Shown one piece after another: positions 39,371 to 53,482 of a stretch of 64,000 nucleotides of DNA (positions are counted from its first letter, which is position 1; each line of letters begins with the position of its first letter). The stretch lies in assembly GCA_033648345.1 (NCBI GenBank), contig GCA_033648345.1_4121.1. One strand, written 5' to 3'. Origin of the DNA: a phage. The position numbers and the translations under genes were made by a program. Under the pieces are notes generated by a model. It saw only the letters and a program-made list of their open reading frames with translations. It made no database searches and had not been told where the DNA came from.

Positions 39371-39550
39371 ATGAACGAACACAAAGACTTCTATATAAGA
39401 AAACTAACATTCGTCCCCGTAAAAATATATAAAGAATGCGACCCAAGATTATACCTATGGCACTTCAATGAGTGCATAAAAGATTCTATATACCCTAAGA
39501 ACTATAAAGAACAATTGTGCTCAGTACTAACACTAGTACTATCATATTAA
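39371..39550 (+). CDS. small protein, family S member 20 (59 aa)
   Basis: Below track threshold; MNEHKDFYIRKL…. Confidence 0.5.
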   Translation: MNEHKDFYIRKLTFVPVKIYKECDPRLYLWHFNECIKDSIYPKNYKEQLCSVLTLVLSY

Positions 39551-39563
39551 TAGAGATAATACT

Positions 39564-39755
39564 ATGCATAAAGACTATAAAGAGTACTATATAAGTAAAC
39601 TCAAAGAGAATGAACAAGCATGGGTTAACAATTTAATCCCCCTGGCAATGACTCAATACGAATTTAATATGTGTACAAAGATTGTTTTAACTAGTAATGA
39701 TATCTCTAATACGTACTACTTCCTATTAAGAGTACTATATGGTACTTTGAAATAA
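39564..39755 (+). CDS. small protein, family S member 21 (63 aa)
   Basis: MHKDYKEYYISKLKENEQAW…FNMCTKIV…. Confidence 0.6.
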   Translation: MHKDYKEYYISKLKENEQAWVNNLIPLAMTQYEFNMCTKIVLTSNDISNTYYFLLRVLYGTLK

Positions 39756-39766
39756 TAAGGTATACT

Positions 39767-39973
39767 ATGCAGAACATAAAAAACTATAAAGAGTACTATA
39801 TAAGTAAACTACCACCGACTGACCAAGCATGGATTAGATCTATAATAGTACTGGCATTTAATAGATATGCATTTAACAGATGTACCGAGATTGCTATAGA
39901 CCCTTATAATATTAAAGAGAATGTACAGCATAATCAGTACTACTATATGTTAATGCTTATATATAGGAAGTAA
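39767..39973 (+). CDS. small protein, family S member 22 (68 aa)
   Basis: MQNIKNYKEYYISKLPPTDQAW…FNRCTEIA…MLMLIYRK. Confidence 0.6.
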   Translation: MQNIKNYKEYYISKLPPTDQAWIRSIIVLAFNRYAFNRCTEIAIDPYNIKENVQHNQYYYMLMLIYRK

Positions 39974-40127: not shown

Positions 40128-40420
40128 GTAATCATATGTAGTCATAAGTAATCATATATAAACATTTATGTAATCATTTATAATCATTGTAGTGATTAGT
40201 ATTGAGTACTAGAGTGTAATAGAGTGTAATAGAGTACAGGAATGTGCACGTTTAATCAAGAACGTAGCAGTACTGCCCCAAAAGTATTCAGTACTGAAGG
40301 TGTCGATATCCCACTAAGTAGGCAGAGGAAGTCTGCCGTACTTTTTAGTTTCCAAGCTCCTTTTCCATTTTGCAAATTACATCAAATGTAATCAAAAGTA
40401 ATCACGCAATGATTAGTACT
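40128..40420. repeat. iteron-like cluster: GTAATCA x5 direct plus inverted TGATTAC-like copies; AGTGTAATAGAGT x2
   Basis: GTAATCA at 40128, 40148, 40170, 40388, 40399; GTGTAATAGAGT tandem at 40213-40235. Confidence 0.55.
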
Positions 40421-40892
40421 GAATTATTACTTTCACCTTAATTTCAATTACCCCTTTACCCTTCGGGGTAAAATTCCATTACCCCTTGAGGCTCCAGCAA
40501 AAAGTTGGTTAGTACTCCATCCTAAATCTCGATCCTAAAAATTTTGGAGTACCTATGAAATAAAAGTTGGATCTTCGAAAGTTGAAATTTACGTTGGGAC
40601 GTTTGTGATTTGTGGGATATAATGATGTTTGTAGTCGGGTAGTTCTCAAGAATATCAGTACTGAATGGTGAAAGAAAGTTATTGACATTATGATTCAGTA
40701 CTGTATAATGTTTTACATAGAGAGATGAGTTGCCGCAAACAATTCATTCACTCTACTTCCTGTCGTGAGACAGTACAGAAAGATAGTTCCTCCTATGGGT
40801 GGTACATCTTTTAGAACCTCTTTTTTCGTAATATGAACAGTACTGATATTAACAGAATGGTGTCAATACTGATTTTAATCTAAAGCATTATG

Positions 40893-40912
40893 CCACCAGC
40901 TTGTGCTGGTGG
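40893..40912. repeat. inverted Chi pair forming a hairpin (CCACCAGC-TTGT-GCTGGTGG)
   Basis: GCTGGTGG at 40905-40912 and its reverse complement at 40893-40900. Confidence 0.6.
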
Positions 40913-41097
40913 ATTCCCTCTAACAGTATTCAGTACTACATGATAGTCTTCATCCTCCTAGGGTAACATAGTGAGGGCTATGATGGCAGTACTGAATACT
41001 CCTTTCACAAGATAGATCTATGGTATAGTACTGACGTATTTTGGGCGTAGTTACCCTGGATGGATTTTGGACGTAGATATGTCTAGCCCTCCAGAAG

Positions 41098-41239
41098 TCT
41101 GGAAGTAAATATGGCTATCCATCTAGACGGCTAAACGGCTAGATTTCTGGATGGCTGGGTGGCTGGGTGGCTGGGTGGCTAGACGTTTGGACGGCTAAAC
41201 GGCTAGATGGTTACACGTCTGGAAGTATAGACGGCTAAA
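41098..41239. repeat. nested direct repeats: GGCTGGGT x3 tandem (41153-41176), GACGGCTAAACGGCTAGA x2, TCTGGAAGTA x2
   Basis: Repeats read directly; no ORF with SD covers them. Confidence 0.6.
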
Positions 41240-41402
41240 TCAAAATTTTATTTTGTTTTTTCCAATAGTTCCCCTACCGCGTGGGGATAGTTTCCCCGCA
41301 GTATCTGGAGTTAGATTTTTCTGAATCTGGAATCATTATCTTATAAACTGGGGGCAATGTCAACAGCCTGGACGGATATTTTTAAAAATTTTTTCAGTAC
41401 TG

Positions 41403-41460
41403 AATTTTGGGCGTAACTATGCACCCGGTGGGCTTGAGTCTTTCTCGACTTGATGGAACT
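41403..41460 (-). ncRNA. candidate small RNA/leader with conserved CCCACCGGGTGCAT core (element family E)
   Basis: Minus-strand TATAAT-like box at 41461-41466 followed by …CATCAAGTCGAGAAAG…AGCCCACCGGGTGCATAG…. Confidence 0.3.
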
Positions 41461-41621
41461 ATTATACAGTACTGGAAAAATAAAGCAATACCCTGGAAGC
41501 AAAAAAGTTTTAATTAATTTGCTTGCTATCCTGGGCCGGACTATGGTACTATATTTCAGTACTGAGAAAGTGCGTTTACCTGCTAGGGTGCGGGAGTGTA
41601 TCCTTTTTTTATATCTTGAAT

Positions 41622-41675
41622 TTTGGGCGTAATTCCGCACCCTCTGGGGTTTCCGCTTTCTCGCGTCTATGTAGT
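41622..41675 (-). ncRNA. candidate small RNA/leader, divergent element E copy
   Basis: Minus strand: TATAAT then CTACATAGACGCGAGAAAGCGGAAACCCCAGAGGGTGCGGAATTACGCCCAAAAT. Confidence 0.25.
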
Positions 41676-41998
41676 AATTATACGCTTTTTCAGGATCAAG
41701 TCAATACCTAAAAACAAAATAATTGAAAATAATTTAACGCGTTTAAACGGCCAGTAAAGCCCTGGAATGATTGGAATGGTGCAAATGTATAGCTTAGGTG
41801 TATTAATGCGTTAGAATGCGTCTGAGGCCGTTTTATGGGGTATAGGGATGATTTGGTGGATTGATTCAGTACTGAATAATAGTACTACTATATAGAAAGA
41901 TAGTTCCCCTGGATGGTTGCAGTACTGAATGATAGTACTGAATAATAGTTCCCCTATATAGAAAGAAAACTATTTTAAAAAGTATTTGTAGAAAGTAC

Positions 41999-42058
41999 TT
42001 GCAAACTAAGTTTAACGGCGTATAATGTTTTACATCGAGAGCGGGAACACTTCCCGCT
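41999..42058 (+). promoter_or_regulatory. early-type promoter (TTGCAA…TATAAT) with 5' stem-loop
   Basis: AGTACTTGCAAACTAAGTTTAACGGCGTATAATGTTTTACATC then GCGGGAACACTTCCCGC hairpin before SD. Confidence 0.6.
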
Positions 42059-42081
42059 ACATATTACGAGAGATTAAAACG

Positions 42082-42444
42082 ATGGCGACTCAAATCACTA
42101 AAATTATTGCTAACCTGGTTAACTTCCGCGACGAGATGAAAGGTCTTCCGGCTGAAACGGTAAAAATTCACATCGCAGCTTATCGGGAACTTATTGCAAT
42201 GTTGCCGCTTAAGCGTGAACAATACGCCGCGACCGTGATGCTTGATGCGATGATCCATAAGATGATCGCCAGTGATTTGACGATGGCGTATCAGTATATG
42301 GGTGAATTGTTCGCGGTGTATAGTAAACCAGTACCAGGAATGGAAAGTACAGAAGTATTACACGGTTTAAATTTAAAACAAGATGCATGGGATAATATGC
42401 CTCGTTTCCTGGTATGGGCTGACAGTGGCAAGATTTACGAATAA
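42082..42444 (+). CDS. hypothetical protein (120 aa)
   Basis: ATG after promoter hairpin and GAGAG SD; track start 42025 lies inside the promoter. Confidence 0.6.
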   Translation: MATQITKIIANLVNFRDEMKGLPAETVKIHIAAYRELIAMLPLKREQYAATVMLDAMIHKMIASDLTMAYQYMGELFAVYSKPVPGMESTEVLHGLNLKQDAWDNMPRFLVWADSGKIYE

Positions 42445-42458
42445 GTTTTAGAAAGTAC

Positions 42459-42516
42459 TTGCAAACTAAGTTTAAAAGCGTATAATGTTTTACATCAGGT
42501 GGGGAATAGTTCCCCA
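42459..42516 (+). promoter_or_regulatory. early-type promoter with 5' stem-loop
   Basis: Same consensus; hairpin GGGGAATAGTTCCCC. Confidence 0.6.
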
Positions 42517-42536
42517 CTATATAAGAGGATTAAAAA

Positions 42537-42776
42537 ATGGCTAAATCAAAAATGTTCTTAGGTCACAAAAACAAAACTCATTGGAATGTAAGCCTTTGGA
42601 TTAATAACGATGAGTCATTGTACCGGTTGGCCCTGGACTTTATTGCCGCCAATACTAATCGCAATGATGCGGCCCGTCATATGATGTTATTTTTAGAACA
42701 GACTGGACAAGATAAAACACCGGACGGATTCAAATATAGCACTACTGCGATCCGTGCGGCGATGGTTGGAATGTAA
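42537..42776 (+). CDS. hypothetical protein (79 aa), paralogue of 44576-44815
   Basis: AGAGGA SD; shares …GHKNKT[HQ]WNVSLWINN…TPDGFKYSTTAIRAAMVGM with 44576. Confidence 0.65.
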   Translation: MAKSKMFLGHKNKTHWNVSLWINNDESLYRLALDFIAANTNRNDAARHMMLFLEQTGQDKTPDGFKYSTTAIRAAMVGM

Positions 42777-42861
42777 TAGAATTTATTTAAAGTACTATCG
42801 CAAAAAATGATAGTACTTTATAATAGTGTTTTATTCATACACCAACGATAAGGGCAACAGC

Positions 42862-43128
42862 ATGAATATTAAGTATTTTGCGACGCGTGAACAAGCTCGG
42901 ATCGCCGCACGCCAGGACGGGGCAACGTTTAAAGATATGGGCGTACAATCGGAACGTGGTAAACGTTGGGCCATTATAAAGCGTAGTACCGCCAGATCAT
43001 TACAGTACTGGTTAGCGGCGTTAAAAAGTCCCGATAGTGTATCGCGTCGAGTGGTAGAAATAAAGCTCGACCGAAAGGGCAACCGCGTGACCGTGTACCG
43101 TACTAAAAAGATTGCAGTACTTGAATAA
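42862..43128 (+). CDS. hypothetical protein (88 aa), paralogue of 55885-56280
   Basis: AAGGG SD; shares FATREQARI…FKDMG…KRWA…DRKGNRVTVY with 55885. Confidence 0.6.
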   Translation: MNIKYFATREQARIAARQDGATFKDMGVQSERGKRWAIIKRSTARSLQYWLAALKSPDSVSRRVVEIKLDRKGNRVTVYRTKKIAVLE

Positions 43129-43135
43129 AAAGTAC

Positions 43136-43195
43136 TTGCAAACTATGTTTAATGGCGTATAATGTTTTACATCGAGAGCGGGAACACTTCCCGCC
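43136..43195 (+). promoter_or_regulatory. early-type promoter with 5' stem-loop
   Basis: TTGCAA 43136-43141, TATAAT, GCGGGAACACTTCCCGCC hairpin. Confidence 0.6.
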
Positions 43196-43215
43196 TATAA
43201 CCTGGAGTAATAAAA

Positions 43216-43446
43216 ATGACTAATATGTATATGACTGAAGTTAAAACCGTAAAAGATACTACCACGAATAAAACTACTTACTTACAGCGGATCTGCGGTG
43301 TATGGCAACGTATCAGCAAATCAAAGTACTTTAAATTAACATCATATGCAAACCGTTCGGATTCATTCAGTACTGAAATAAAAGGTAATAAAGTACACCA
43401 ATACGGCACTTATTATTATTATAGCCTGGACGCGATTGCAGTATAA
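43216..43446 (+). CDS. hypothetical protein (76 aa)
   Basis: GGAG SD. Confidence 0.6.
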   Translation: MTNMYMTEVKTVKDTTTNKTTYLQRICGVWQRISKSKYFKLTSYANRSDSFSTEIKGNKVHQYGTYYYYSLDAIAV

Positions 43447-43476
43447 GCAGTTTACAAATCTTTACAATTGCCGGTA

Positions 43477-43505
43477 TTGACTTATTTTGTCAGTACTGGC
43501 ATAAT
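43477..43505 (+). promoter_or_regulatory. sigma70-type promoter driving element E copy
   Basis: TTGACT 43477-43482, spacer with AGTACTG, CATAAT 43500-43505. Confidence 0.5.
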
Positions 43506-43509
43506 GTAT

Positions 43510-43557
43510 TCATTGGCAGATAAGCCGTAGCCCATAGGGTGCGGGAGTGTATCTATA
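43510..43557 (+). ncRNA. candidate small RNA/leader (element E)
   Basis: …AGCCCATAGGGTGCGGGAGTGTATCTATAG immediately downstream of a promoter; no ORF. Confidence 0.3.
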
Positions 43558-43577
43558 GAAAAAGTAGTTTATTACAG

Positions 43578-43620
43578 TTACAATTGTGCACCCGGTGGGT
43601 TAGCTGTTGTCATGGGGTAT
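43578..43620 (-). ncRNA. candidate small RNA/leader (element E, opposite strand)
   Basis: Minus strand: CATAAT (43621-43626) then …CATGACAACAGCTAACCCACCGGGTGCACAATTG; convergent with 43510 copy. Confidence 0.3.
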
Positions 43621-43649
43621 ATTATGCCAGTACTTGATAATGCTGTCAA
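43621..43649 (-). promoter_or_regulatory. minus-strand sigma70-type promoter
   Basis: Reverse complement reads TTGACA-17-CATAAT. Confidence 0.5.
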
Positions 43650-43695
43650 TACTTTTTTTTACTATTCAGTACTGAAAACTATTTTTAAAAAGTAC

Positions 43696-43723
43696 TTGCA
43701 AACTATGTTTAAAGGCGTATAAT
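43696..43723 (+). promoter_or_regulatory. early-type promoter (upstream member of a tandem pair)
   Basis: TTGCAA 43696-43701, TATAAT 43718-43723. Confidence 0.55.
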
Positions 43724-43730
43724 GTTTTAC

Positions 43731-43810
43731 ATCAGGACGGGGAACGAAATAAGTAACTCCCCGTTAAGTAGCCCAGGAGTAAGGCACACGAAAAACTCCC
43801 CTGATAAAAT
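43731..43810 (+). ncRNA. conserved non-coding leader between tandem promoters (element L)
   Basis: ATCAGGACGGGGAACGAAATAAGTAACTCCCCGTTAAGTAGCCCAGGAGTAAGG…ACGAAAAACTCCCC; no start codon; repeated at 54691 and 46677. Confidence 0.35.
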
Positions 43811-43813
43811 AGT

Positions 43814-43841
43814 TTGACAAATGTTTTTAAAAGCGTATAAT
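43814..43841 (+). promoter_or_regulatory. sigma70-type promoter (downstream member of tandem pair)
   Basis: TTGACA 43814-43819, TATAAT 43836-43841. Confidence 0.55.
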
Positions 43842-43873
43842 ACTTACATCAACTACTGAATGAGGGTTACAAA

Positions 43874-44485
43874 ATGAAAACTATCACTACTACTACTTTC
43901 GTTATGGATTTTTCTGAATTGAACGCAGAACAAAAAACGTCAGCTATCGAACTGGTTCGGGAACGTGAAAAAAACTCAAACGACAATTATTTTTCTGAAA
44001 GTGAAATTGAATACTATAAAGAAACAGTACTACCGGAATATGGCATTAATGACGCTGAAATACAATTCAGTGGTTTTTGGTCCCAGGGTGACGGTGCATC
44101 AATCAGTACTGACCACGTTGACGGTGTGAAGTTTTTACGCAAGGTAAGAGCATTAACTAAGTATCGCTCAATCCGTCACTTGCTGAATGAAGATGATTTG
44201 GCGATGAGTGTAAAGCGTTCTCATTCTTTGTACTTGCATGAGAATACTGTAAGCGGGTACATTGAATCGGCTTACACTGATTTAACCGCAAAACAAGAAA
44301 CGTTAGTTAATGAGCTTGAGGAACTACTCACTGAAACTATTCGTGAATTATCCCGCAAGTTGTACCGTGATTTAGAGAATGCATATGAGGATCAATTCAC
44401 TACTGAAAACATCGTATCACTGATTGAGGGTAACGAATATCAATTCAATGTTATTGATGGCGTAGTAGAATCAATCGAATATTAA
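43874..44485 (+). CDS. hypothetical protein (203 aa)
   Basis: GAGGG SD. Confidence 0.65.
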   Translation: MKTITTTTFVMDFSELNAEQKTSAIELVREREKNSNDNYFSESEIEYYKETVLPEYGINDAEIQFSGFWSQGDGASISTDHVDGVKFLRKVRALTKYRSIRHLLNEDDLAMSVKRSHSLYLHENTVSGYIESAYTDLTAKQETLVNELEELLTETIRELSRKLYRDLENAYEDQFTTENIVSLIEGNEYQFNVIDGVVESIEY

Positions 44486-44575
44486 TTCAAAAAGTACTTG
44501 CAAACTAAGTTTAAAAGCGTATAATACTTTATATCGAGGCGGGGAGTGGTTCCCCGCTCAAACGAGGATTTAAAA

Positions 44576-44815
44576 ATGGCTAGTACTAAAACTTATAACG
44601 GACACAAAAACAAAACTCAATGGAATGTAAGCCTTTGGATTAATAACGGTGAGTCATTGTATCGGCTTGCACAAAGTTGTATCGCACAAAGTAGAACTAA
44701 AGATATTGCAGCGGAATGCATGTACCGCAGATTAAAAGCCAACGGTACTACTACAACGCCGGACGGCTTTAAGTATAGCACTACTGCGATCCGTGCTGCA
44801 ATGGTTGGAATGTAA
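44576..44815 (+). CDS. hypothetical protein (79 aa), paralogue of 42537-42776
   Basis: Promoter + GGCGGGGAGTGGTTCCCCGC hairpin + GAGGA SD then ATG 44576. Confidence 0.65.
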   Translation: MASTKTYNGHKNKTQWNVSLWINNGESLYRLAQSCIAQSRTKDIAAECMYRRLKANGTTTTPDGFKYSTTAIRAAMVGM

Positions 44816-44873
44816 TATTCAGTACTGTAACAATGGCGGGGAATGGTTCCCGCCTTTATTGAGGGTTTATCTA

Positions 44874-45134
44874 ATGAGTAAAGTAATTAACTATACAGTA
44901 CTAAGCAAGTCATTGTCTATCAGTGAATGCACCGATGGTTTTTGGCTTTATGATGAAACGCGTGGAATGAATTTAGCTATGCGTGTAAAAACTGCTGAGG
45001 CGGCGTATCTTGAGGCACTGGAATACTACCAGGAACGTTTAACGGAAGTAGAAGAAGATTATAAAAGCCTCAAAGCGAAAGTAGATCATTTCGTCGGTCA
45101 ATTCATCGAGGAAGACGACGATAAACAATACTGA
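44874..45134 (+). CDS. hypothetical protein (86 aa)
   Basis: Intercistronic hairpin GGCGGGGAATGGTTCCCGCC, GAGGG SD, ATG 44874. Confidence 0.55.
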   Translation: MSKVINYTVLSKSLSISECTDGFWLYDETRGMNLAMRVKTAEAAYLEALEYYQERLTEVEEDYKSLKAKVDHFVGQFIEEDDDKQY

Positions 45135-45222
45135 AAAAAAGTACTTGCAATTAGTTTTCAGTACTGTATAATAGTTTACATCAAGTGGAGAAATGGTTCT
45201 CCCTGGTAATGAGGAAAATAAA

Positions 45223-45444
45223 ATGGCTAATATCACTACTCTTTCCCAACTGGAAGCACTGGTTAAATCTATGCGGGAACATGCCGACAAAATCGGCGTA
45301 CAAGATCCAGCCGTTTGCTTCTGCGACGAATTGAATGATGATACCCTTGTAATAGCAGAAGTCCAGGACGTTTCTAACTATTCCTCGCGTTACACTGGCG
45401 GCGTAGCAAATAAAGGCGACTTCTGTTTATACCTTACAAAATAA
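45223..45444 (+). CDS. hypothetical protein (73 aa)
   Basis: Promoter TTGCAA 45145/TATAAT 45167, hairpin, GAGGA SD. Confidence 0.6.
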   Translation: MANITTLSQLEALVKSMREHADKIGVQDPAVCFCDELNDDTLVIAEVQDVSNYSSRYTGGVANKGDFCLYLTK

Positions 45445-45449
45445 CAACG

Positions 45450-45479
45450 CGGGGAGATAATAACTCCCCGTTACTTTTT
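45450..45479. terminator. rho-independent terminator
   Basis: CGGGGAGATAATAACTCCCCG hairpin + TTACTTTTTC. Confidence 0.6.
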
Positions 45480-45502
45480 CAGTACTGAATCATTTAATAG
45501 AC

Positions 45503-45550
45503 GGATCTATGCACCCGGTGGGTTAGTGACTGTTTCGTCTTGATGTAGTA
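45503..45550 (-). ncRNA. candidate small RNA/leader (element E, opposite strand)
   Basis: Minus strand: CATAAT (45551-45556) then TACTACATCAAGACGAAACAGTCACTAACCCACCGGGTGCATAGATCC. Confidence 0.3.
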
Positions 45551-45579
45551 ATTATGCCAGTACTGGATGCAGTTGTCAA
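45551..45579 (-). promoter_or_regulatory. minus-strand sigma70-type promoter
   Basis: Reverse complement reads TTGACA-17-CATAAT. Confidence 0.5.
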
Positions 45580-45687
45580 CAACTATTTTTCAAATACTTT
45601 TTATTAAAATACTTGCAATTAGTTTTTAAACGCGTATAATGTTTTGCATAGGGGGAGCGGTTCCCCTGGTAACTAAGGAATAATAAA

Positions 45688-45924
45688 ATGCTTGAACAAA
45701 TCAAATCAACGTCTGCGAATGTAACGGGAACGGTAGCACACTTTACTAGTGATGAATCGCGGGGCGTTCCCTATTGTGCTGTACATGTAAACACTGATGG
45801 CAACTACTGGTTTACGGTTTACGGATCATATTCATTTGGACGGCCTGGGCATCAAAAAATTCTGGATAAAGTACAACCAACGGGTAAAAATATCACTGCC
45901 GAAATGTTTTATAAAAAATCATAA
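45688..45924 (+). CDS. hypothetical protein (78 aa)
   Basis: Promoter TTGCAA 45613/TATAAT 45635, hairpin GGGGGAGCGGTTCCCC, AAGGAA SD. Confidence 0.6.
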   Translation: MLEQIKSTSANVTGTVAHFTSDESRGVPYCAVHVNTDGNYWFTVYGSYSFGRPGHQKILDKVQPTGKNITAEMFYKKS

Positions 45925-46008
45925 AGTACTTGATAATAGTTTTTAGTACTGTATAATATTTTACATCGCAAGGGGGAGCGGTTCCCCCTAGTAACTAAGG
46001 ATAATCAA

Positions 46009-46308
46009 ATGAAAATTGCAATCATCGCCCTGGCTTTATCTGTTTCCTCTTTCGCTGTTAATGCGTCATTAGATGTAAGTAGTGAAAAATTCATTCAGTG
46101 CACTGTTGCAATGACCGATGAAAGAACTGGCGAGATTGTATTAAAGGATTTAGAGATCCAGCCGGAAGCATTTAAAAACGGCCCGTTCCATGAAGAAGAC
46201 GAAAACGGTAGCACAACAATTTATTATGATGCCAGTACTAAACGCGGTTCGGTCACTGTAATGGATACTGAGAAAGTAACTCATACTGGCGTTATTAATT
46301 GCCGTTGA
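46009..46308 (+). CDS. secreted protein (99 aa), signal peptide
   Basis: MKIAIIALALSVSSFAVNA leader; own promoter and hairpin. Confidence 0.65.
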   Translation: MKIAIIALALSVSSFAVNASLDVSSEKFIQCTVAMTDERTGEIVLKDLEIQPEAFKNGPFHEEDENGSTTIYYDASTKRGSVTVMDTEKVTHTGVINCR

Positions 46309-46329
46309 TAGATACTACGGGGTAACATC

Positions 46330-46560
46330 ATGACTAAGCGAATTGTTTTACTTAACGAAAGCAGTACTACACAACTACTTAACGCCGTGCATTATGATAT
46401 TGAAACGAGCGTTAATCTTATCAGTACTGTAGTACTGTTGGACACTGGAAAGGTCGCCAATGATAAAGCGATTGCAGGTATATTAACGGATCTTGAGCCT
46501 GGTAGCAGTGCACCAATAACGTTAAATGGTAAAGTGTTTAATATTTTACTCACTGATTAA
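46330..46560 (+). CDS. hypothetical protein (76 aa)
   Basis: ORF followed by strong terminator. Confidence 0.55.
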   Translation: MTKRIVLLNESSTTQLLNAVHYDIETSVNLISTVVLLDTGKVANDKAIAGILTDLEPGSSAPITLNGKVFNILLTD

Positions 46561-46566
46561 GTACAT

Positions 46567-46592
46567 AGCCCACCTGGTGGGCTTTTTTGTTT
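46567..46592 (+). terminator. rho-independent terminator
   Basis: AGCCCACC-T-GGTGGGCT hairpin + TTTTTTGTTTTT. Confidence 0.7.
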
Positions 46593-46676
46593 TTGTAGTA
46601 TCGTAGTACTGAGATACTTTGAAAATAGTTTTAAAAAAGTAGTTGACATTACCGCAGAAAAGCGTAGAATGTATTA

Positions 46677-46750
46677 CATCAAGACGGGGAGCACTAAGTA
46701 GACCGCCAGTAAGTCGAACGAAAAACTGGACACGTCGAGAAAACTTTGAT
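46677..46750 (+). ncRNA. conserved non-coding leader (element L, divergent copy)
   Basis: TTGACA 46643/TAGAAT 46665 then ATCAAGACGGGGAGCACTAAGTAGACCGCCAGTAAG…ACGAAAAACTGG. Confidence 0.3.
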
Positions 46751-46793
46751 ACACTAATAAACGTAAACTAAACTTTAATTGAGGATTTATAAA

Positions 46794-47276
46794 ATGGCTA
46801 ATGTAAAATCATTCATCAAAGCACTGGTAGCAAATGAAACTAACGTCGCGGCAGAGATCCTGGCTGAACTGGATAACGATACCATGAAAGCGGTACGCAA
46901 TAATTTTAACATCGCGTACAGTACTGCGAAAGAACTACAAGCAAATAAAGCAGCAGAGATCGAGGCAGCAAAGGCGGCCCGTGAAGCAGAACTACAAGCA
47001 ACAATTGAAAGTATTCAGGCGGCAGTAGTTGGATTGGATCTGGAAGTAGTTACAGAGATGGCACAAAAAGCCCTGGCGAAAAAGTACGGGGAAGACAAGC
47101 CAGAAGTAAAAGCCAAAAAATGGATTCAAGAACGTGTAGCGGTAGTACTTGATAATGGGGAAGAATATCTGATTCCGGTGCGTGGTAACTGCATTGCTGT
47201 AGTACTGGATGCGATTAACTCCAGCGGTATGACTCGCGAGGAATGGATCGAAGCTCATCGCAAAGTGGAAGCATAA
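46794..47276 (+). CDS. hypothetical protein (160 aa)
   Basis: GAGGA SD then ATG 46794. Confidence 0.65.
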   Translation: MANVKSFIKALVANETNVAAEILAELDNDTMKAVRNNFNIAYSTAKELQANKAAEIEAAKAAREAELQATIESIQAAVVGLDLEVVTEMAQKALAKKYGEDKPEVKAKKWIQERVAVVLDNGEEYLIPVRGNCIAVVLDAINSSGMTREEWIEAHRKVEA

Positions 47277-47297
47277 CAATTAAAGTACTGAATCACT

Positions 47298-47326
47298 AGC
47301 CCACTGTATAAGTGGGCTTTTTTGTG
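47298..47326 (+). terminator. rho-independent terminator
   Basis: AGCCCACT-GTATA-AGTGGGCT hairpin + TTTTTTG. Confidence 0.7.
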
Positions 47327-47342
47327 TTTATCGTTTACCAGG

Positions 47343-47412
47343 CCACCAGCACCGCCTAGAATCGATTCTAACGCATTAAACTGATTATCTGATGCATCGC
47401 CCTAGCTGGTGG
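47343..47412. repeat. inverted Chi pair (CCACCAGC … GCTGGTGG) flanking a TAGAATCGATTCTA palindrome
   Basis: Reverse-complement Chi at 47343-47350, Chi at 47405-47412; 14-bp perfect palindrome between them. Confidence 0.55.
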
Positions 47413-47550
47413 AGTTAAGGCCGTTAGAATGCGATTTAGAGCGTTTAAAGTATTTTGCAAAAAGTAATAAAAAGTACTTGCACGATTCAGAGATTAGCGT
47501 ATAATGTTTTACATCAAGGCGAAACACCTTAACTAACTGAGGATATAAAG

Positions 47551-47703
47551 ATGAATACTTATGAACTGGATTGTTTCACTATGCAAGTAATGTTAGTATG
47601 CAGTAAAAAAGAATGGTCATCAAAGGAATTTAAAGCAGTTATTGCGTGTGCAAAACACGGCAAGACTATCAATGAAACGGCATCAATCATTGATAAACTT
47701 TAA
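47551..47703 (+). CDS. hypothetical small protein (50 aa)
   Basis: Below track threshold; promoter (TATAAT 47500) + GAGGA SD then ATG. Confidence 0.5.
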   Translation: MNTYELDCFTMQVMLVCSKKEWSSKEFKAVIACAKHGKTINETASIIDKL

Positions 47704-47773
47704 AAAATAGTTTGACAATAGTTTTAAGTACTGACATAATACATACATCAACTACTGAATAGGAATCAAAACA

Positions 47774-48001
47774 ATGGCTATCGTAATCACTCGCGTATCT
47801 GGTACTACTGGCAATTCTTCTACTGTTGCTGTAATTACTAATAAGAAAGGTGCGGAATTACATTTTGCAATGAATACCTGGGCGGTGAATGAGTTCGGTC
47901 AGTGGGCTAGTGTAGAATACATTGAAACCTATCAAGTGCCAACCATTAGCTTAACGGATCTCGGCGTAGATCGTATCTTATGCCTGGATGAATTAAATTA
48001 A
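47774..48001 (+). CDS. hypothetical protein (75 aa)
   Basis: Promoter TTGACA 47712/CATAAT 47735; AGGAA SD. Confidence 0.6.
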   Translation: MAIVITRVSGTTGNSSTVAVITNKKGAELHFAMNTWAVNEFGQWASVEYIETYQVPTISLTDLGVDRILCLDELN

Positions 48002-48086
48002 AAAAGTACTTGCAAAGTAAATCAAATAAAGTATAATACATTACATCAAGGGGAGAAATGGTTCTCCCCACTACAAGGAAACTAAA

Positions 48087-48236
48087 ATGAAAACTTGTCA
48101 ATGTGGTCAGAAATCTATTACGGGTTTAAAGCGGGGCGTTGCTCTTTGCCAGTACCATTATAATTTACAAGTATGGGGTAAAGAATGGGCCGACCAGGTG
48201 GAAGCAGCAAAGAAAGCAAAAAGTAAGTAAAAATAT
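48087..48236 (+). CDS. small Cys-containing protein (49 aa), possible zinc ribbon
   Basis: Below track threshold; promoter + hairpin + AAGGAA SD; CQCG…CQYH. Confidence 0.5.
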
Positions 48237-48248
48237 TATCACAGTACT

Positions 48249-48277
48249 ATTGACATAGTTTGATAGTACTGGCATAA
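48249..48277 (+). promoter_or_regulatory. sigma70-type promoter (duplicated module, copy 1)
   Basis: TTGACA 48249-48254, spacer GTTTGATAGTACTGG, CATAAT 48272-48277; about 80 bp repeated at 48525-48605. Confidence 0.6.
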
Positions 48278-48311
48278 TAGATTTTATCAAGACAACTAAG
48301 AGGAAACAATA

Positions 48312-48524
48312 ATGGCTATCATCACAAAAATCAAAGTAAACAAATCACTGGTTAAGCTGGAAGAAGTGAAAGAAGGTTATAAAGTATCGTGGTGCGGCAT
48401 GTATCGGATTTTTACAGATGTTGACGATGCAATCAATTACTACACTGACACGGTAAAAAACTTTGTTCGTGCTGATGTGGTTATGGCAGTGGCAACACAC
48501 AAAGCATCGAAAGAAAGTAAGTAA
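48312..48524 (+). CDS. hypothetical protein (70 aa)
   Basis: AGAGGA SD. Confidence 0.6.
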   Translation: MAIITKIKVNKSLVKLEEVKEGYKVSWCGMYRIFTDVDDAINYYTDTVKNFVRADVVMAVATHKASKESK

Positions 48525-48543
48525 AAATATTATCACAGTACTA

Positions 48544-48572
48544 TTGACATAGTTTGATAGTACTGGCATAAT
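48544..48572 (+). promoter_or_regulatory. sigma70-type promoter (duplicated module, copy 2)
   Basis: Identical to copy at 48249. Confidence 0.6.
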
Positions 48573-48605
48573 AGATTTTATCAAGACAACTAAGAGGAAA
48601 TTAAA

Positions 48606-48950
48606 ATGGCTAACATCAACACTATCGCAGCACAAAATATCAACCTGTCTTCTGTTGAAGTTGTACATATTGCCGCTCGGCGTTGGTTCCAGGCTTCATA
48701 TGGTAACACTTATTTCTCTTTAAGTGTAGACGTAGAAATTGATGGTAATTTTATTGAAGTAGTAAACGTGCCGTTCCAATATGGATACGGGGATCATTTT
48801 GACACTGTAGCAATGGAAGAATTTAGCAAGGTTATTAATATGGAAGGTAAAGAGTTTTTACGCGGTTCTTATCTTTCACGTTTTTGCCGTGATAATAATA
48901 TCACTGTTTACAGTTCGGTAACTGATGTTAAACGCAAAAAAGATCTTTAA
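48606..48950 (+). CDS. hypothetical protein (114 aa), paralogue of 55466-55789
   Basis: Shared GNTY…YGYG…VKRKKD with 55466. Confidence 0.65.
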   Translation: MANINTIAAQNINLSSVEVVHIAARRWFQASYGNTYFSLSVDVEIDGNFIEVVNVPFQYGYGDHFDTVAMEEFSKVINMEGKEFLRGSYLSRFCRDNNITVYSSVTDVKRKKDL

Positions 48951-49030
48951 TTAGCTTTACTTTATGCAGATACTTTGATATAGTGTCTGCATAGGGGAAA
49001 GAAATTAAATTAACTTAAGAGGATAGTATA

Positions 49031-49300
49031 ATGAAAAATATCAGTACTTTAATTGATGCAGGTACACATGTTCGGCGGTCTATGGTTGCAACCAGTACTA
49101 CAAAACAAGTAGCAAGCGGTTATCTTGTATTTGTGCACGATGGAAAACTCCTGGAACGTTCAATCAATTTTGATGTTAAAAACAATTGCCGTTTTATTAT
49201 TTTTAAGCGTGAACAATATAAAATTGATTTACCAGCGAAGCCCATTAGCGGGGCGTATAACGTCTATTCATTGTTTGAGCGTCAACCATACACCTATTAA
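49031..49300 (+). CDS. hypothetical protein (89 aa)
   Basis: AGAGGA SD. Confidence 0.6.
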   Translation: MKNISTLIDAGTHVRRSMVATSTTKQVASGYLVFVHDGKLLERSINFDVKNNCRFIIFKREQYKIDLPAKPISGAYNVYSLFERQPYTY

Positions 49301-49351
49301 TCAAAACATCGTTAGCGGTCGATTTAGGCCGCTTATATTGGGGATTATACC

Positions 49352-49624
49352 ATGAACGTTAATCAAGTACTGAATGAGATCGAAAGCATCATTAAACCAA
49401 TGAAACGCATTGATGCTATGTTAACACCGGAAGAATGCCGCCTTTATGAGCGTTACAGCGTCGAACAAGTCCAGGCAATGGCTATGGCTACCCCAGCCGT
49501 TAAACAGCCTGAGAACGCGTTACAGGACGTTACAGGGGATTATATCATCAATCCAGTACTAGGGAAGATGGCGGCAATCACCGAAGATCAACAAGACTAC
49601 TTAAGCCAGTACTTAAAAGGTTAA
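49352..49624 (+). CDS. hypothetical protein (90 aa)
   Basis: ORF, weak SD. Confidence 0.55.
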   Translation: MNVNQVLNEIESIIKPMKRIDAMLTPEECRLYERYSVEQVQAMAMATPAVKQPENALQDVTGDYIINPVLGKMAAITEDQQDYLSQYLKG

Positions 49625-49629
49625 TTAAT

Positions 49630-49839
49630 ATGCTTACTGTACAGGATAAGATCGACATCTTAAAGGTTAATATGTATGTGATTGATGCCGTACCTGGTAA
49701 AGTATTTGCATACGATGACACTACTGTAAGCGATTTCTACTATAGCCAGGCCGTGGGGGATCTTTCTGTACAGTCGGTTATTGAAAACGTAGTTAATGCA
49801 GCGTATGAGCATTTACTTTCAAATAGTACTTGCAATTAG
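49630..49839 (+). CDS. hypothetical protein (69 aa)
   Basis: ORF closely following previous stop. Confidence 0.55.
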   Translation: MLTVQDKIDILKVNMYVIDAVPGKVFAYDDTTVSDFYYSQAVGDLSVQSVIENVVNAAYEHLLSNSTCN

Positions 49840-49908
49840 TTTTTAAACGCGTATAATGTTTTACATGAAGGGGAGAAATGATTCTCCCCACTAATTAAGG
49901 AATATGAA

Positions 49909-50055
49909 ATGAAAGCATCAAAAAAGAGTAATACTAAGAAAGCACGTTCACCTTTCGCTGGGGTATTCCCTTTACGTTTCGTTGATGAAGTGGTTTCCTA
50001 CCCGCCGGGCCTTACTCCTGAGATGGTAGAAAGTTTGCGTAAATCTAAAAAATAG
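49909..50055 (+). CDS. hypothetical basic small protein (48 aa)
   Basis: Below track threshold; promoter + GGGGAGAAATGATTCTCCCC hairpin + AAGGA SD. Confidence 0.45.
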   Translation: MKASKKSNTKKARSPFAGVFPLRFVDEVVSYPPGLTPEMVESLRKSKK

Positions 50056-50136
50056 TACTTGCAATTAGTTTTTAAACGCGTATAATGTTTTACATAGAGG
50101 GGAGAAATGGTTCTCCCCAATAACAGGAGAATCAAA

Positions 50137-50289
50137 ATGAAACAATACAATGCTCGGTTTGATGTTACTATCGGCAACGGCAAAGGTCAATTTTCTTTCA
50201 GTACTCGCCGCAGTTATACAGAAAACTTCCTGCGTAATTGTGCACTGACCGCCGCACAAATTAAACATTACTTCCAGGCTAAAAAATGA
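50137..50289 (+). CDS. hypothetical small protein (50 aa)
   Basis: Promoter + hairpin + AGGAGA SD; track start 50107 is inside the hairpin. Confidence 0.55.
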   Translation: MKQYNARFDVTIGNGKGQFSFSTRRSYTENFLRNCALTAAQIKHYFQAKK

Positions 50290-50375
50290 AATCATTAGCT
50301 TATTACAGTTCAGCGGTGATCGGTGCATTGATCGCGGCATTGTTAGTAACCTATCTATTCTTTATGGTGATTTAA
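50286..50375 (+). CDS. tiny hydrophobic peptide (29 aa)
   Basis: ATGA overlap with previous stop; MKSLAYYSSAVIGALIAALLVTYLFFMVI. Confidence 0.35.
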   Translation: MKSLAYYSSAVIGALIAALLVTYLFFMVI

Positions 50376-50510
50376 ATGAATCCTAACGGTTTAATTTACA
50401 GTACTCCTAAAACGAAAGCAGATAAAGCGAAAGCACGTAAAGCGAAAGTAAAGGAGTACATTAAGCAAGGCATGACGCGAAAGGCGGCAGTACTGAAAGC
50501 TAAAAAATAA
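50376..50510 (+). CDS. Lys-rich small protein (44 aa)
   Basis: ATG immediately after previous stop (TAAATG). Confidence 0.35.
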   Translation: MNPNGLIYSTPKTKADKAKARKAKVKEYIKQGMTRKAAVLKAKK

Positions 50511-50520
50511 ATGAAAAAAG

Positions 50521-50554
50521 TGGTTGACTTCGGTCAGCCATTTTGCTATTATAT
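50521..50554 (+). promoter_or_regulatory. terminator-hairpin/promoter composite (PeSL-like)
   Basis: GGTTGAC-TTCG-GTCAGCC hairpin + TTTTGCTATTATAT. Confidence 0.6.
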
Positions 50555-50555
50555 A

Positions 50556-50606
50556 TTCATTGAGAGATAGCTCACTAGCCCACCGGGTGCATAAGTGTAT
50601 CTATTA
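50556..50606 (+). ncRNA. candidate small RNA/leader (element E) downstream of PeSL
   Basis: TTCATTGAGAGATAGCTCACTAGCCCACCGGGTGCATAAGTGTATCTATTATAT. Confidence 0.3.
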
Positions 50607-50724
50607 TATAAGTATTGAGTACTGAAAACTATTTTTAAAAAGTACTTGCAAACTATCTCAATAAGCGTATAATGTTTTACATCGAAAGGGGAAACGGTTT
50701 CCCCTGGTAATAAGGAAACAAATC

Positions 50725-51066
50725 ATGACTATTGCAATTGCTCAATCTAACTTTGAAAATGAAATCATCGCCCAGGCACTGCGTTTAAATGATGGTCGGG
50801 CCGAAATTAATTACGGTTTCAATTCAGGCGGTTGTGAAAAATATCAGTACTTTGTAACTGCTGATGGCGGTGTCCTGGGCATCAATACCGTTATTGTAAA
50901 CATTCAGAAAATTAATTTCAATGATCCAGACGATAGCCAGTTTTACATTGTAGGCGTAGACGTGAACTATGAGGATGACTCACTAACTGATGATCACACT
51001 GGCGAGCGGTTAGAAAGTGCATACGGTGAAGATGATTATCAGTCCGGTCCAGAAGATTTCGAATAA
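50725..51066 (+). CDS. hypothetical acidic protein (113 aa)
   Basis: Promoter + GGGGAAACGGTTTCCCC hairpin + AAGGAAA SD. Confidence 0.65.
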   Translation: MTIAIAQSNFENEIIAQALRLNDGRAEINYGFNSGGCEKYQYFVTADGGVLGINTVIVNIQKINFNDPDDSQFYIVGVDVNYEDDSLTDDHTGERLESAYGEDDYQSGPEDFE

Positions 51067-51157
51067 TATAAAAAATAGTTTGACAATAGATTATAGTACT
51101 GTATAATTAATTACATCAAGGGGAGAATAGTTCTCCCCAACTAAGAGGAAAAAGAAA

Positions 51158-51340
51158 ATGGCTGAATTAATCGCTCGGAATACAATTGCAGGCGTTGAAG
51201 ATGTAACATTATCATATGATTCAGATAAACAAGTTTACGTCGTTCGTTATGGTCTGATTGGTGTTAACGTTGATTATATTGATGAAGCCTTTGAAAAATA
51301 CTTTGAATTTATTAATATGGCTTATAATGATTATCGTTAA
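51158..51340 (+). CDS. hypothetical protein (60 aa)
   Basis: Promoter TTGACA…TATAAT + hairpin + AGAGGA SD. Confidence 0.6.
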   Translation: MAELIARNTIAGVEDVTLSYDSDKQVYVVRYGLIGVNVDYIDEAFEKYFEFINMAYNDYR

Positions 51341-51430
51341 AAAATAGTTTGACAATAGATTATAGTACTGTATAATAGTTTACATCAAGGGGAGAAAAAC
51401 TTCTCCCCACTAACAGAGAGAGAAAACAAA

Positions 51431-51643
51431 ATGGCTAATATCTGCACTGTACTGAAAAATGCAAAACAAGTTTTATTTTCTGATCACGATCATTTAAACA
51501 AGGATATTACGGGCGTTCGGAATATCAAAGATGTAAAAAGTGTTATGGGTATCTATTGCAATATGAAACGTGTCGGCACGTTCGGCGATAAAGTACTATA
51601 CCAGGCAGGGGATTATAACTTCACATTAACCATCATCAATTAA
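51431..51643 (+). CDS. hypothetical protein (70 aa)
   Basis: Near-duplicate of the promoter upstream of 51158. Confidence 0.6.
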   Translation: MANICTVLKNAKQVLFSDHDHLNKDITGVRNIKDVKSVMGIYCNMKRVGTFGDKVLYQAGDYNFTLTIIN

Positions 51644-51733
51644 AATATATTACCAGTACTATTGACAACGTTTGATAGTACTGTATAATAAGTTTTATAA
51701 ACAGTAGTTAACTTAACCTAAGAGAGAAACAAA

Positions 51734-51877
51734 ATGATCGCACTGGATTCATTCATCGACGCAGTACTGGCAAAAACTGGCGAGGATCTGACCGCAGAAC
51801 AATACGCGATGATCGAGCAATGTCAGCAAAACGGTAAATCGGTGAAAGATACTGTTAAGATTATCCGCAAGATGTAA
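51734..51877 (+). CDS. hypothetical small protein (47 aa)
   Basis: Below track threshold; promoter TTGACA…TATAAT + AGAGAGA SD. Confidence 0.45.
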   Translation: MIALDSFIDAVLAKTGEDLTAEQYAMIEQCQQNGKSVKDTVKIIRKM

Positions 51878-51886
51878 TATTATAGC

Positions 51887-51912
51887 CCACTGGTTAACGC
51901 TGGTGGGCTTTA
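51887..51912 (+). terminator. hairpin terminator containing a Chi octamer
   Basis: AGCCCACTGG-TTAAC-GCTGGTGGGCT hairpin; weak U-tract. Confidence 0.45.
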
Positions 51913-51982
51913 ATCATTTACCCTATACAATGCCAGTACTCAACCGTTTATCTCGTTAGAATGCGTTACAGGACGTTTGACA

Positions 51983-52180
51983 ATGATTAGCATGAAATCA
52001 GTACAAAAACAAATAGAAACATTATCAAAAATTAAACGTAAACAATACTCCTTAGAATATACAATCAATGGTAACTATCATCTAATGAAAGAAAATAATT
52101 TTATAGTCATTGATGAATCATTGCAAATTATTAGTATAGTACTGAAAGCATTAATCAATGACAGAAAAAAATTAAAATAA
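51983..52180 (+). CDS. hypothetical protein (65 aa)
   Basis: ORF; start uncertain (ATG 51983 or 51992). Confidence 0.45.
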   Translation: MISMKSVQKQIETLSKIKRKQYSLEYTINGNYHLMKENNFIVIDESLQIISIVLKALINDRKKLK

Positions 52181-52183
52181 TTG

Positions 52184-52212
52184 TTGACATACAATGCCAG
52201 TACTGGCATAAT
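52184..52212 (+). promoter_or_regulatory. sigma70-type promoter driving element E copy
   Basis: TTGACA 52184-52189, 17-nt spacer with AGTACTG, CATAAT 52207-52212. Confidence 0.55.
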
Positions 52213-52217
52213 ACTTA

Positions 52218-52266
52218 CATCAAGACGAGAACGTCACTAACCCATAGGGTGCACAAATGTAACTAT
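52218..52266 (+). ncRNA. candidate small RNA/leader (element E)
   Basis: CATCAAGACGAGAACGTCACTAACCCATAGGGTGCACAAATGTAACTAT; no ORF. Confidence 0.3.
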
Positions 52267-52508
52267 ATAATATCGATCAATAAATGATCAAAAAAGTACT
52301 GGATCAATTTAGCATAAGGAGTATAATTCTGATCAATTCTTGATCAAAGGCAATATACGCAGTTGAATTTATATAGACAGTACAAAGGCGTTACTATCCG
52401 TGGTAATGCTGGTGGATATGTAGTATCATATGGTTTGAATAAGATTAGCACTAGTAGTATTATTGTAGCATTACAGTACTATAGTATTTTTATAATGAGG
52501 TTAAAATA

Positions 52509-52766
52509 ATGGCTGTTGGATTCGCGAAGGACGGGGCCGAGCAAGACGAGATTAACGCAGTGATTCAGGCCGCTGTAAACCACGCTAGAAAGCAAATTAA
52601 CGCACAAAGAGAATCACTGGTACATTGCCTCGACTGCGGCGATAAAATCCCTGAGAATCGACGCCAGGCCGTTATAGGGTGCATGTATTGTATTACTTGC
52701 CAGGAGGATCATGATAGTACTTTTAAAAGAGATCCGCGTAATTGTTGGCATAGATCTATGAGATAA
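52509..52766 (+). CDS. TraR/DksA-type C4 zinc-finger protein (85 aa)
   Basis: CLDCGDKIPENRRQA…CMYCITC four-cysteine motif. Confidence 0.7.
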   Translation: MAVGFAKDGAEQDEINAVIQAAVNHARKQINAQRESLVHCLDCGDKIPENRRQAVIGCMYCITCQEDHDSTFKRDPRNCWHRSMR

Positions 52767-52830
52767 AAAGTAATTGACAGTACTGAAAGATAGTGTATAA
52801 TGTTTTATATCTTAACTGAGGATTGAAATC

Positions 52831-53187
52831 ATGGGTATTCAACACATCACGCGTACTACTGACAATGGCGAGATCACTGGTTATCAGGTACAGGGCAAAG
52901 TAGCACAATTGCAGTACTGGTTTGTTAAACGTGGAATCATTGCACCGGATCTTGATTATGACCGTGTAGCGTTTATTGATTCTCTTTATGTTGATCCTGA
53001 TAGTCGGGGCAATGGTGAAGGTAACGAATTAATGAATGCCTTTATTGATGCCGCCGATGATTCAGATTGTATCATCTTAGAATGCGATACGGGAGAAGAT
53101 AACGCCTTTAATCTTAAAGAATGGTACGAAGGCTTCGGATTCGAGGTATTGATAGATAGTGAATATCCTATCATGATTTTATCATAG
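52831..53187 (+). CDS. possible GNAT-family acetyltransferase (118 aa)
   Basis: IDSLYVDPDSRGNGEGNELMNAFID resembles acetyl-CoA binding motif A; assignment tentative. Confidence 0.45.
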   Translation: MGIQHITRTTDNGEITGYQVQGKVAQLQYWFVKRGIIAPDLDYDRVAFIDSLYVDPDSRGNGEGNELMNAFIDAADDSDCIILECDTGEDNAFNLKEWYEGFGFEVLIDSEYPIMILS

Positions 53188-53455: not shown

Positions 53456-53482
53456 TATTAATTTAATAGAGGATAACAATAA

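Follow-up and report, generated by a model that had tools for sequence, protein, structure and literature searches.

Facing promoters and paired copies of a predicted structured RNA element in Asteriusvirus-type jumbo phage DNA

Two strong sigma70-type promoters face each other at positions 43477-43649 of the 64,000-nucleotide stretch of phage DNA analysed here (the window), and one copy per strand of a short conserved element lies between them. As predicted from the sequences, the element represents a family of ~50-nt structured RNAs that is present in about ten copies per early-gene terminal repeat of Rak2-like jumbo phages. We consider it slightly better than an even bet that the site consists of two autonomous, tail-to-tail cassettes, each an early promoter with a structured-RNA module, which bound each other and whose core acts in trans. 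The results obtained computationally are the promoters, the family, the covariation of the structure, the terminators behind solitary copies and the non-random pairing.

Genomic setting

The window corresponds to jumbo coliphages of the PBECO4/121Q/G17 type (genus Asteriusvirus), at 95-98% identity. Sequence comparison places base 1 of phage vB_Ec-M-J at window position 40317, and since the record of that phage annotates a 21.5-kb direct terminal repeat from base 1, the promoter pair would lie ~3.2 kb inside the terminal repeat. Repeat-flanked indels and rearrangements distinguish vB_Ec-M-J from the window. The terminal repeat region is densely occupied by small plus-strand ORFs, with a strong sigma70-type promoter ahead of each.

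The start of the annotated repeat (40317-41980) is a stretch of ~1.7 kb with few ORFs, which contains four copies of CTGGGTGG (41147-41180) and repeats of GGCTAGACG/GGCTAAACG (41112-41240); these repeats might be packaging or end-related signals. Just before the terminal repeat, at 37400-39973 on the plus strand, there are tandem paralogous ORFs of 59-81 aa, with DNA repeats that are 70-73% identical. We also considered that minus-strand copies of the element could be promoters for a minus-strand block to the left of the repeat, and rejected this because the window carries plus-strand ORFs at 36.5-40 kb.

The facing promoters

The plus-strand promoter (43477-43505) consists of TTGACT (43477-43482), a 17-bp spacer and CATAAT (43500-43505), with TG at 43497-43498, and scores 10/12 in the consensus scan; its spacer contains AGTACT and its predicted start is A43512. 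The minus-strand promoter (43649-43621) consists of TTGACA (43649-43644), a 17-bp spacer and CATAAT (43626-43621), with TG at 43629-43628 and a score of 11/12; an A8 tract lies upstream (43660-43653) and the start is predicted near 43613-43614. Both are of the extended -10 (TGn) type. The scan detects exactly these two promoters at the site, i.e. the pair that a first-pass annotation of this DNA had pointed out. Promoters of equal quality with a TG number 21 in the whole window vs 3.2 in dinucleotide shuffles, and there is one convergent pair within 200 bp, compared with none in 40 dinucleotide shuffles. The predicted start sites (43512 on the plus strand, 43613/4 on the minus strand) are ~102 bp apart, and the -10 hexamers 115 bp.

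Among 8 diverse Asteriusvirus genomes the plus promoter is invariant at 29 of 29 positions and the minus promoter is nearly invariant, while the transcribed part that forms hairpin H1 (see below) is swapped or shortened between orthologous loci. Orthologues of the site differ by 7-nt and segment replacements, and the complete convergent unit was found in 36 related phage genomes.

The -35 of the plus promoter is embedded in an inverted repeat (CCGGTATTGAC / GTCAGTACTGG, 43471-43499, plus strand) that corresponds to a hairpin of -18.5 kcal/mol in RNA folding and has no U tract. A stem containing TTGAC, i.e. a -35 embedded in a stable hairpin, is present in 25 of the 54 family promoters. The 12-bp hairpins at 50517-50544, 54520-54547, 57798-57825 and 60249-60276 are followed by a T-rich tract and were scored as terminator-like by the scan. 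Each of them embeds the promoter of a plus-strand family copy, namely 50524-50552 for the copy at 50555-50606, 54527-54555 for the copy at 54558-54604 (without the H1 stem), 57805-57833 for the copy at 57836-57887 (66 bits) and 60256-60284 for the copy at 60293-60333 (also without H1). These hairpins have UNCG loops; the -35 TTGAC of the next promoter forms their ascending stem, and its -10 lies in their T-rich tail. Such compact overlaps of terminator and promoter recur in other genera with compensatory stem changes.

Some further sequence features of the promoters deserve mention. The palindrome AGTACT occurs 275 times in 64 kb vs ~22 expected, and comparable 6-bp palindromes occur 8-40 times. 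Its sites cover the entire window, with a higher density in the terminal repeat (examples are at 43492, 43629, 43668 and 43691). At ordinary early promoters it overlaps the -35 or immediately precedes it; it also follows most element tails at a distance of 6-17 nt and lies in spacers beside extended -10 elements, and the spacers of both facing promoters carry one. In four genera some of the element promoters have another motif, ACAAATCTTTACAA(A), 8-12 nt ahead of the -35; it might act as an upstream promoter element or bind a factor. In the window it is found at 43454-43467, and elsewhere several times in L002 (11001-28461), at 6545 and 23535 in L003 (GAP32) and at 3745 in L004. Outside the terminal repeat, the plus strand of the window carries nine high-scoring TGn extended -10 promoters without element copies at 237-12524.

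The facing promoters do not lead into evident genes of their own. No ORF of at least 40 aa is found downstream of the minus promoter before the antisense run into ORF 43216-43446, and the next plus-strand gene (43874) has its own promoters at 43696-43723 and 43814-43841. A protein-coding reading of the site was rejected, since the only ORFs overlapping it are 20-36 aa long and the CDS annotations of 121Q, A4 and WPEC3 at this place lack conservation. These short hypothetical CDSs across the pair, 121Q gp270 (L007 365-550), A4_267 (L009 468-584) and WPEC3 CDS063/064 (L012 481-665), are probably spurious. A short peptide with GGGUG as its Shine-Dalgarno sequence was also dismissed, since start codons are not conserved among the copies.

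The element family

The sequence between the facing promoters was said to hold one element copy per orientation, and this agrees with the covariance model described below. The plus copy is located at 43508-43558 (47 bits, E 5e-9; core at 43531-43542) and the minus copy at 43572-43612 (27.5 bits, E 3e-4; core at 43599-43588; tail GUAACU at 43581-43576). Their cores had also been called partly complementary, which is not an adequate description: the copies are homologous sequences in opposite orientation, so that the two RNAs would resemble each other, and a long intramolecular hairpin would form only in a read-through transcript (z about -4).

The core, CCCNNNGGGTGC, occurs 10 times in the window vs 0.09 expected occurrences, and each window core lies ~28 nt downstream of its own promoter of the type TTGAC-N17-xATAAT. 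The covariance model was built from 14 same-register copies and was searched against the 64-kb window and ~125 kb (27-40 kb each) from four phages of other genera. It gives 55 matches at E<=1 in this set; 54 copies were used in the counts, and one truncated 28-nt match in CBB was set aside. The window contains 10 model matches, all within 41405-60333.

Each of the 54 copies follows a sigma70 promoter, with 3-5 nt (rarely up to 19) between the end of the -10 and the start of the model. A TGn is present in 34 of the 54 element promoters vs none of the 13 ordinary early promoters of the window. Identity to other genera is 83-86% over the 57 nt that run from the -10 to shortly beyond the core, whereas the flanks are unmatched at the DNA level. 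This 57-nt module is conserved in Klebsiella phages RaK2 and K64-1, Cronobacter phage GAP32, Pectobacterium phage CBB and Salmonella phage Munch. An exact-pattern scan of 2.9 million viral contigs located the element in 11 stretches: ten belong to contigs of 345-378 kb and the eleventh to a contig of 109 kb.

The same region of the window (41974-49894) harbours a second repeat family, with 12 or more copies of AAAGTACTTGCAA-N16-TATAAT (e.g. 43111-43200 and 43671-43760). Behind the promoter these cassettes have a GC-rich 5' hairpin, the stems of which vary, and a Shine-Dalgarno sequence, and they have the look of the PeSL cassettes discussed below.

The element family appears to be previously undescribed, as nothing like it was found in Rfam, in host genomes or in the literature searched. 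Rfam 15 gave no matches over the whole window at gathering thresholds and chance-level matches only at E<=10 within 43450-43680, ARAGORN found no tRNA or tmRNA genes in the window, and the literature searched contains no description of the element or of a transcriptome of these phages. A resemblance to E. coli tmRNA (GCGAAACCCAAGGUGCAU) was considered and rejected, as the covariance model gives ~0 bits on ssrA. A host copy or mimic was rejected as well, since BLAST searches of 5,426 complete E. coli genomes gave no match. The distant relative PA5oct has RNA-seq-defined ncRNAs in its terminal repeat, and a link to these was discarded because the model has no match in the first 40 kb of PA5oct. 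Finally, the 179-bp palindromic unit was considered as a transposon-like (MITE) insertion, a reading we abandoned since no target-site duplication is visible at its flanks.

Predicted RNA structure

The order of the module is a hairpin (H1) with an A-rich loop, a linker of 3-5 nt, the CCC-NNN-GGGUGC core and a pyrimidine-rich GYAUCY tail. H1 is a stem of 3-5 bp capped by an A-rich loop of 6-8 nt. The core can form a second hairpin (H2), and the tail, 6 nt past the core, can pair with GGGUGC as an alternative (H3). In the plus copy of the pair, U14/G15-G16-C17 pairs with G24-C25-C26/G27 around the loop AGAUAA to form H1, 43530-43533 pairs with 43537-43540 in H2, and 43537-43542 pairs with 43549-43554 in the alternative H3.

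In an alignment that was fitted to the model, so that pairing and pair counts favour structure, H1 shows double-sided changes at 4 of 4 modelled pairs (91 cells) and is 94% paired vs 34-50% in slid controls. A model-free search for the best hairpin finds 29 distinct stems, with a mean score of 9.4 vs a shuffle maximum of 8.1 (200 shuffles), and RNAalifold independently predicts both H1 and H2 (RCCC-NNN-GGGU). H2 is almost invariant, with an outer pair that alternates between G-U and A-U. In the same model-fitted alignment H3 is 92% paired vs 34-66% in slid controls and all variation keeps the pairing (G-U/G-C and U-A/U-G exchanges), yet this covariation is suggestive only, because the changes are one-sided and are transitions. 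The pairing is rich in G-U, which would be C-A on the opposite strand, so the structure belongs to the RNA made from the element's own promoter and is strand-specific. Taken singly, modules show no unusual stability (z -1.1 and +0.2).

About ten family copies, the minus copy at 43572-43612 among them, have an A-rich stretch without the H1 stem. The 5' part of this minus copy is 7 nt shorter, and its orthologues in EJP2 and WPEC3 retain H1 as GAC-GAGAAA-GUC. Since it has no H1 and a weak score (27.5 bits), the copy could be decaying.

Convergent pairs and solitary copies

Tail-to-tail pairing is found for 10 of the 19 minus copies vs 0.38 expected by random placement (maximum 4 in 5000 trials). 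Seven pairs, i.e. the window pair, three in CBB and three in GAP32, share an offset of 64-65 nt and a 21-nt AT-rich spacer. In the window this central spacer between the two tails is ATAGAAAAAGTAGTTTATTAC (43555-43575); in the six CBB and GAP32 pairs its sequence differs and its length is the same 21 nt. The identical 65-nt offset could reflect common descent rather than constraint. Pairs align across genera as whole units, those of CBB and GAP32 are syntenic, and the pairs of Munch and RaK2 are 76-88 nt apart with a small central palindrome. The RaK2 homologue of the window plus copy is solitary, which indicates that pairing is not required for the module.

A second, decayed pair is present in the window at 41580-41672. 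The minus copy at 41621-41672 (31.4 bits; promoter 41704-41677) is faced by a degenerate plus-strand relic (CTGCTAGGGTGCGGGAGTGTATCC + T7, 41580-41604), in which H3 and the U-run (41585-41604) were scored as a terminator.

Solitary minus copies are organised differently. In 7 of 8 a GC-rich hairpin flanked by A/U tracts, i.e. a bidirectional terminator, follows within ~30 nt, and these terminators predict discrete RNAs of ~100-110 nt. An example is the copy at 45495-45546, with its promoter at 45579-45551 and the terminator at 45450-45470, for which an RNA of ~108 nt is predicted, from 45544 to ~45437. The solitary minus copy at 41405-41456 (47.5 bits) has no clear terminator, and the downstream fold is unstable. 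Behind both copies of the pair at 43477-43649 an intrinsic terminator is absent. A terminator thus stands behind solitary minus copies and a partner behind paired ones, which argues for mutual bounding and not for a decision switch.

Most plus copies lack a terminator and continue into the following promoter or gene. The copy at 52217-52268 (promoter 52184-52212) is followed ~50 nt downstream by a Shine-Dalgarno-like AAGGAG, and as there is no other recognisable promoter before the AAGGAG it looks like an mRNA leader. Downstream of one plus copy of GAP32 (L003 8824-9320) there are ~440 bp without an annotated gene, with an annotated terminator (9199-9228) at the end; CBB has three extra small genes at this position, and the GAP32 stretch represents a gene that has decayed or else a longer transcript without coding function.

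Proposed mechanism and alternatives

In the following scheme the transcription, the RNA ends, the mutual truncation, the trans action and its target are inferred from sequence. The sigma70 RNA polymerase of the host would start 7 nt after the extended -10 and transcribe the ~50-nt module at once. With starts ~102 bp apart, the two modules of 45-50 nt do not overlap, and each polymerase could therefore finish its own module. It would then meet the opposing promoter complex or polymerase, so that the partner would play the role of an intrinsic terminator and two short RNAs of roughly 60-100 nt would result. From the approximately ten copies per terminal repeat the cell would be flooded with this RNA as soon as the DNA has entered, and if the terminal repeat is real in the window phage the copy dose would double per virion DNA. 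Acting in trans, the invariant core would most likely be bound by an abundant protein or serve as a decoy for one.

An abundant RNA that acts through its core is suggested by the number of copies, the strength of their promoters, the invariance of the core and the terminators behind solitary copies, and the core of such an RNA probably works by binding a protein. Host stable RNAs were rejected as antisense targets, as the longest complementarity to 16S, 23S and 5S rRNA, three tRNAs and the ssrA region was within the shuffle range, except for one variant-specific 13-mer. We speculate further, and only tentatively since we think it less likely to be right than wrong, that this is a new class of phage RNA, produced at very high dose from 20 or more gene copies in the first minutes after the DNA enters, whose core captures or reprograms a host factor and for which pairing is a way of making short RNAs without a terminator. 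Candidate host targets of such an RNA could be RNA polymerase, an RNA-binding global regulator or an RNA-sensing defence protein.

The main rival reading, rather unlikely in our view, is that the module is instead a cis-acting 5' leader that alters the fate of the nascent transcript or of its polymerase, be it by processive antitermination (as in HK022 put or lambda nut), by 5'-end stabilisation or by translation control of early mRNAs, with the minus-strand and paired copies as by-products or antisense brakes. The module does always lie at the very 5' end, at a fixed distance from the start site, and its two small hairpins with purine-rich loops recall boxB and put. Many plus copies come right after a strong terminator that embeds the -35, an arrangement of the 'stop then restart' kind. 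Most plus copies are unterminated and lead into genes, and the one at 52217 has no other promoter before the gene; these unterminated copies and the leader-like 52217 count against action in trans and fit a cis role at least as well. A leader would, however, be out of place in 7 of 8 solitary minus copies, where the terminator comes directly after the module with no gene beyond, and ten more minus copies fire into a partner. Furthermore, downstream genes usually have a strong promoter and a 5' hairpin of their own, and Rfam shows no homology to known antitermination RNAs.

An improbable explanation, in our view, is that the cassettes are of the PeSL type and only start and stop early transcription and provide substrates for recombination, in which case there would be no RNA function and the pair would be a by-product of recombination. 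A strong sigma70 promoter and a stem-loop between small ORFan genes are indeed PeSL-like (PMC2839356, PMC4122927), H1 segments are swapped between orthologous loci as recombination among copies would predict, and related genomes are separated by repeat-flanked indels. Yet conservation between genera is higher in the transcribed 50 nt than anywhere around them, these 50 nt show compensatory changes and strand-specific G-U pairing, the pairs recur non-randomly and are syntenic between CBB and GAP32, and ordinary early promoter cassettes of the same region lack the module.

The first-pass annotation had regarded overlapping antisense RNAs from the two promoters as suited to a toggle or mutual-interference switch. 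In such a switch firing on one side would repress the other through polymerase collision and antisense pairing, and alternative expression states would result. Overlapping transcripts are geometrically possible, with predicted starts ~102 bp apart; the modules themselves do not overlap. Interference between polymerases is physically expected if both promoters fire, and we nevertheless regard the switch as very improbable. Two strong facing promoters at this distance, read-through RNAs that are fully complementary and fold into a long hairpin, and a layout resembling pR/pL of coliphage 186 and PQ/PX of pCF10 would suit it. Against these points, there are no alternative outputs, as no ORF lies past the minus promoter and the gene on the plus side has promoters of its own, and no regulator gene or operator specific to the 43477-43649 site is apparent. 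The convergent unit is present 2-3 times per genome, the window pair is one of ten among the 54 family copies, most copies are unpaired, and the plus copy has a solitary homologue in RaK2.

Least credible of all is that the cassettes are replication origins similar to T4 oriF/oriG or ColE1, at which short G-rich transcripts form R-loops that prime leading-strand synthesis and a convergent pair would prime synthesis in either direction over the AT-rich spacer. A promoter, a G-cluster (GGGUGCGGGAG) and a 21-nt spacer rich in A and T are present in each unit, and the clade of the phage carries T4-like replication genes (PMC5259590), but ten or more origins in 20 kb are implausible, terminators follow the solitary minus copies and an R-loop primer has no need of covarying, conserved hairpins.

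Rak2-like jumbo phages are used in phage therapy and biocontrol, and their 20-kb terminal repeats are annotated almost wholly as hypothetical proteins. Should the cassettes be real RNA genes, the first expression of these phages would consist of small proteins together with a high dose of one conserved structured RNA, a new component of host takeover or anti-defence to look for. Convergent pairs would add a case in which facing promoters delimit short transcripts rather than encode a regulatory decision. Public annotation is corrected at the site, where several records have CDSs running across the pair. Experiments on the family should be easy to set up, as it is short, has an invariant core and offers natural compensatory variants, with and without H1, terminator or partner. 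The interest of the element would be higher if a trans-acting target were found.

Comparison with known systems

The known concept closest to the cassettes is that of the promoter-early stem-loop (PeSL) promoter/terminator cassettes of T4-type phages (Arbiol et al. 2010, PMC2839356; Comeau et al. 2014, PMC4122927). Both are repeated, dispersed intergenic cassettes among small non-essential early genes, and both have a near-consensus sigma70 promoter, an AT-rich upstream region, a stem-loop and signs of exchange between copies; the stem-loop is a terminator in PeSLs and is scored as terminator-like at four window copies of the element. The element cassettes differ in that they add a transcribed module of ~50 nt in which the core is invariant and one hairpin covaries, most of their promoters have an extended -10, and copies occur on both strands and in convergent pairs. 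A closer analogue of PeSL is found in the neighbouring ordinary early-promoter cassettes (AAAGTACTTGCAA-N16-TATAAT and a GC hairpin).

As far as the convergent arrangement is concerned, pR/pL of phage 186 and PQ/PX of the Enterococcus plasmid pCF10 are strong convergent promoters 60-220 bp apart that decide which of two gene sets is expressed, under the influence of dedicated regulators. The window pair resembles them in its face-to-face promoters, for which collision and antisense overlap are geometrically expected. In contrast, it has no dedicated coding output on either side, and the unit is multi-copy.

The put RNA of HK022 and the nut RNA of lambda are similar to the element in as much as they are short, promoter-proximal, consist of two stem-loops with purine-rich loops and are present in several copies. 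No sequence similarity was detected, many element copies lie directly before a terminator or face a partner, and there are 10-12 copies vs 2. Read-through genes downstream, as expected of put and nut, are lacking for the window minus copy and for 7 of 8 solitary minus copies, and are present for some plus copies.

Under the preferred reading, an abundant RNA that acts through its core, the element would share with the multi-site CsrB/RsmZ sponge RNAs and other abundant early small RNAs of phages a high dose of a short conserved motif presented on hairpins. Like those RNAs, solitary minus copies of the element have their own promoter and, in 7 of 8, a predicted Rho-independent terminator. The difference is that the element distributes its motif over many single-site genes instead of a single RNA with many sites, and that this motif has neither GGA nor another known binding motif.
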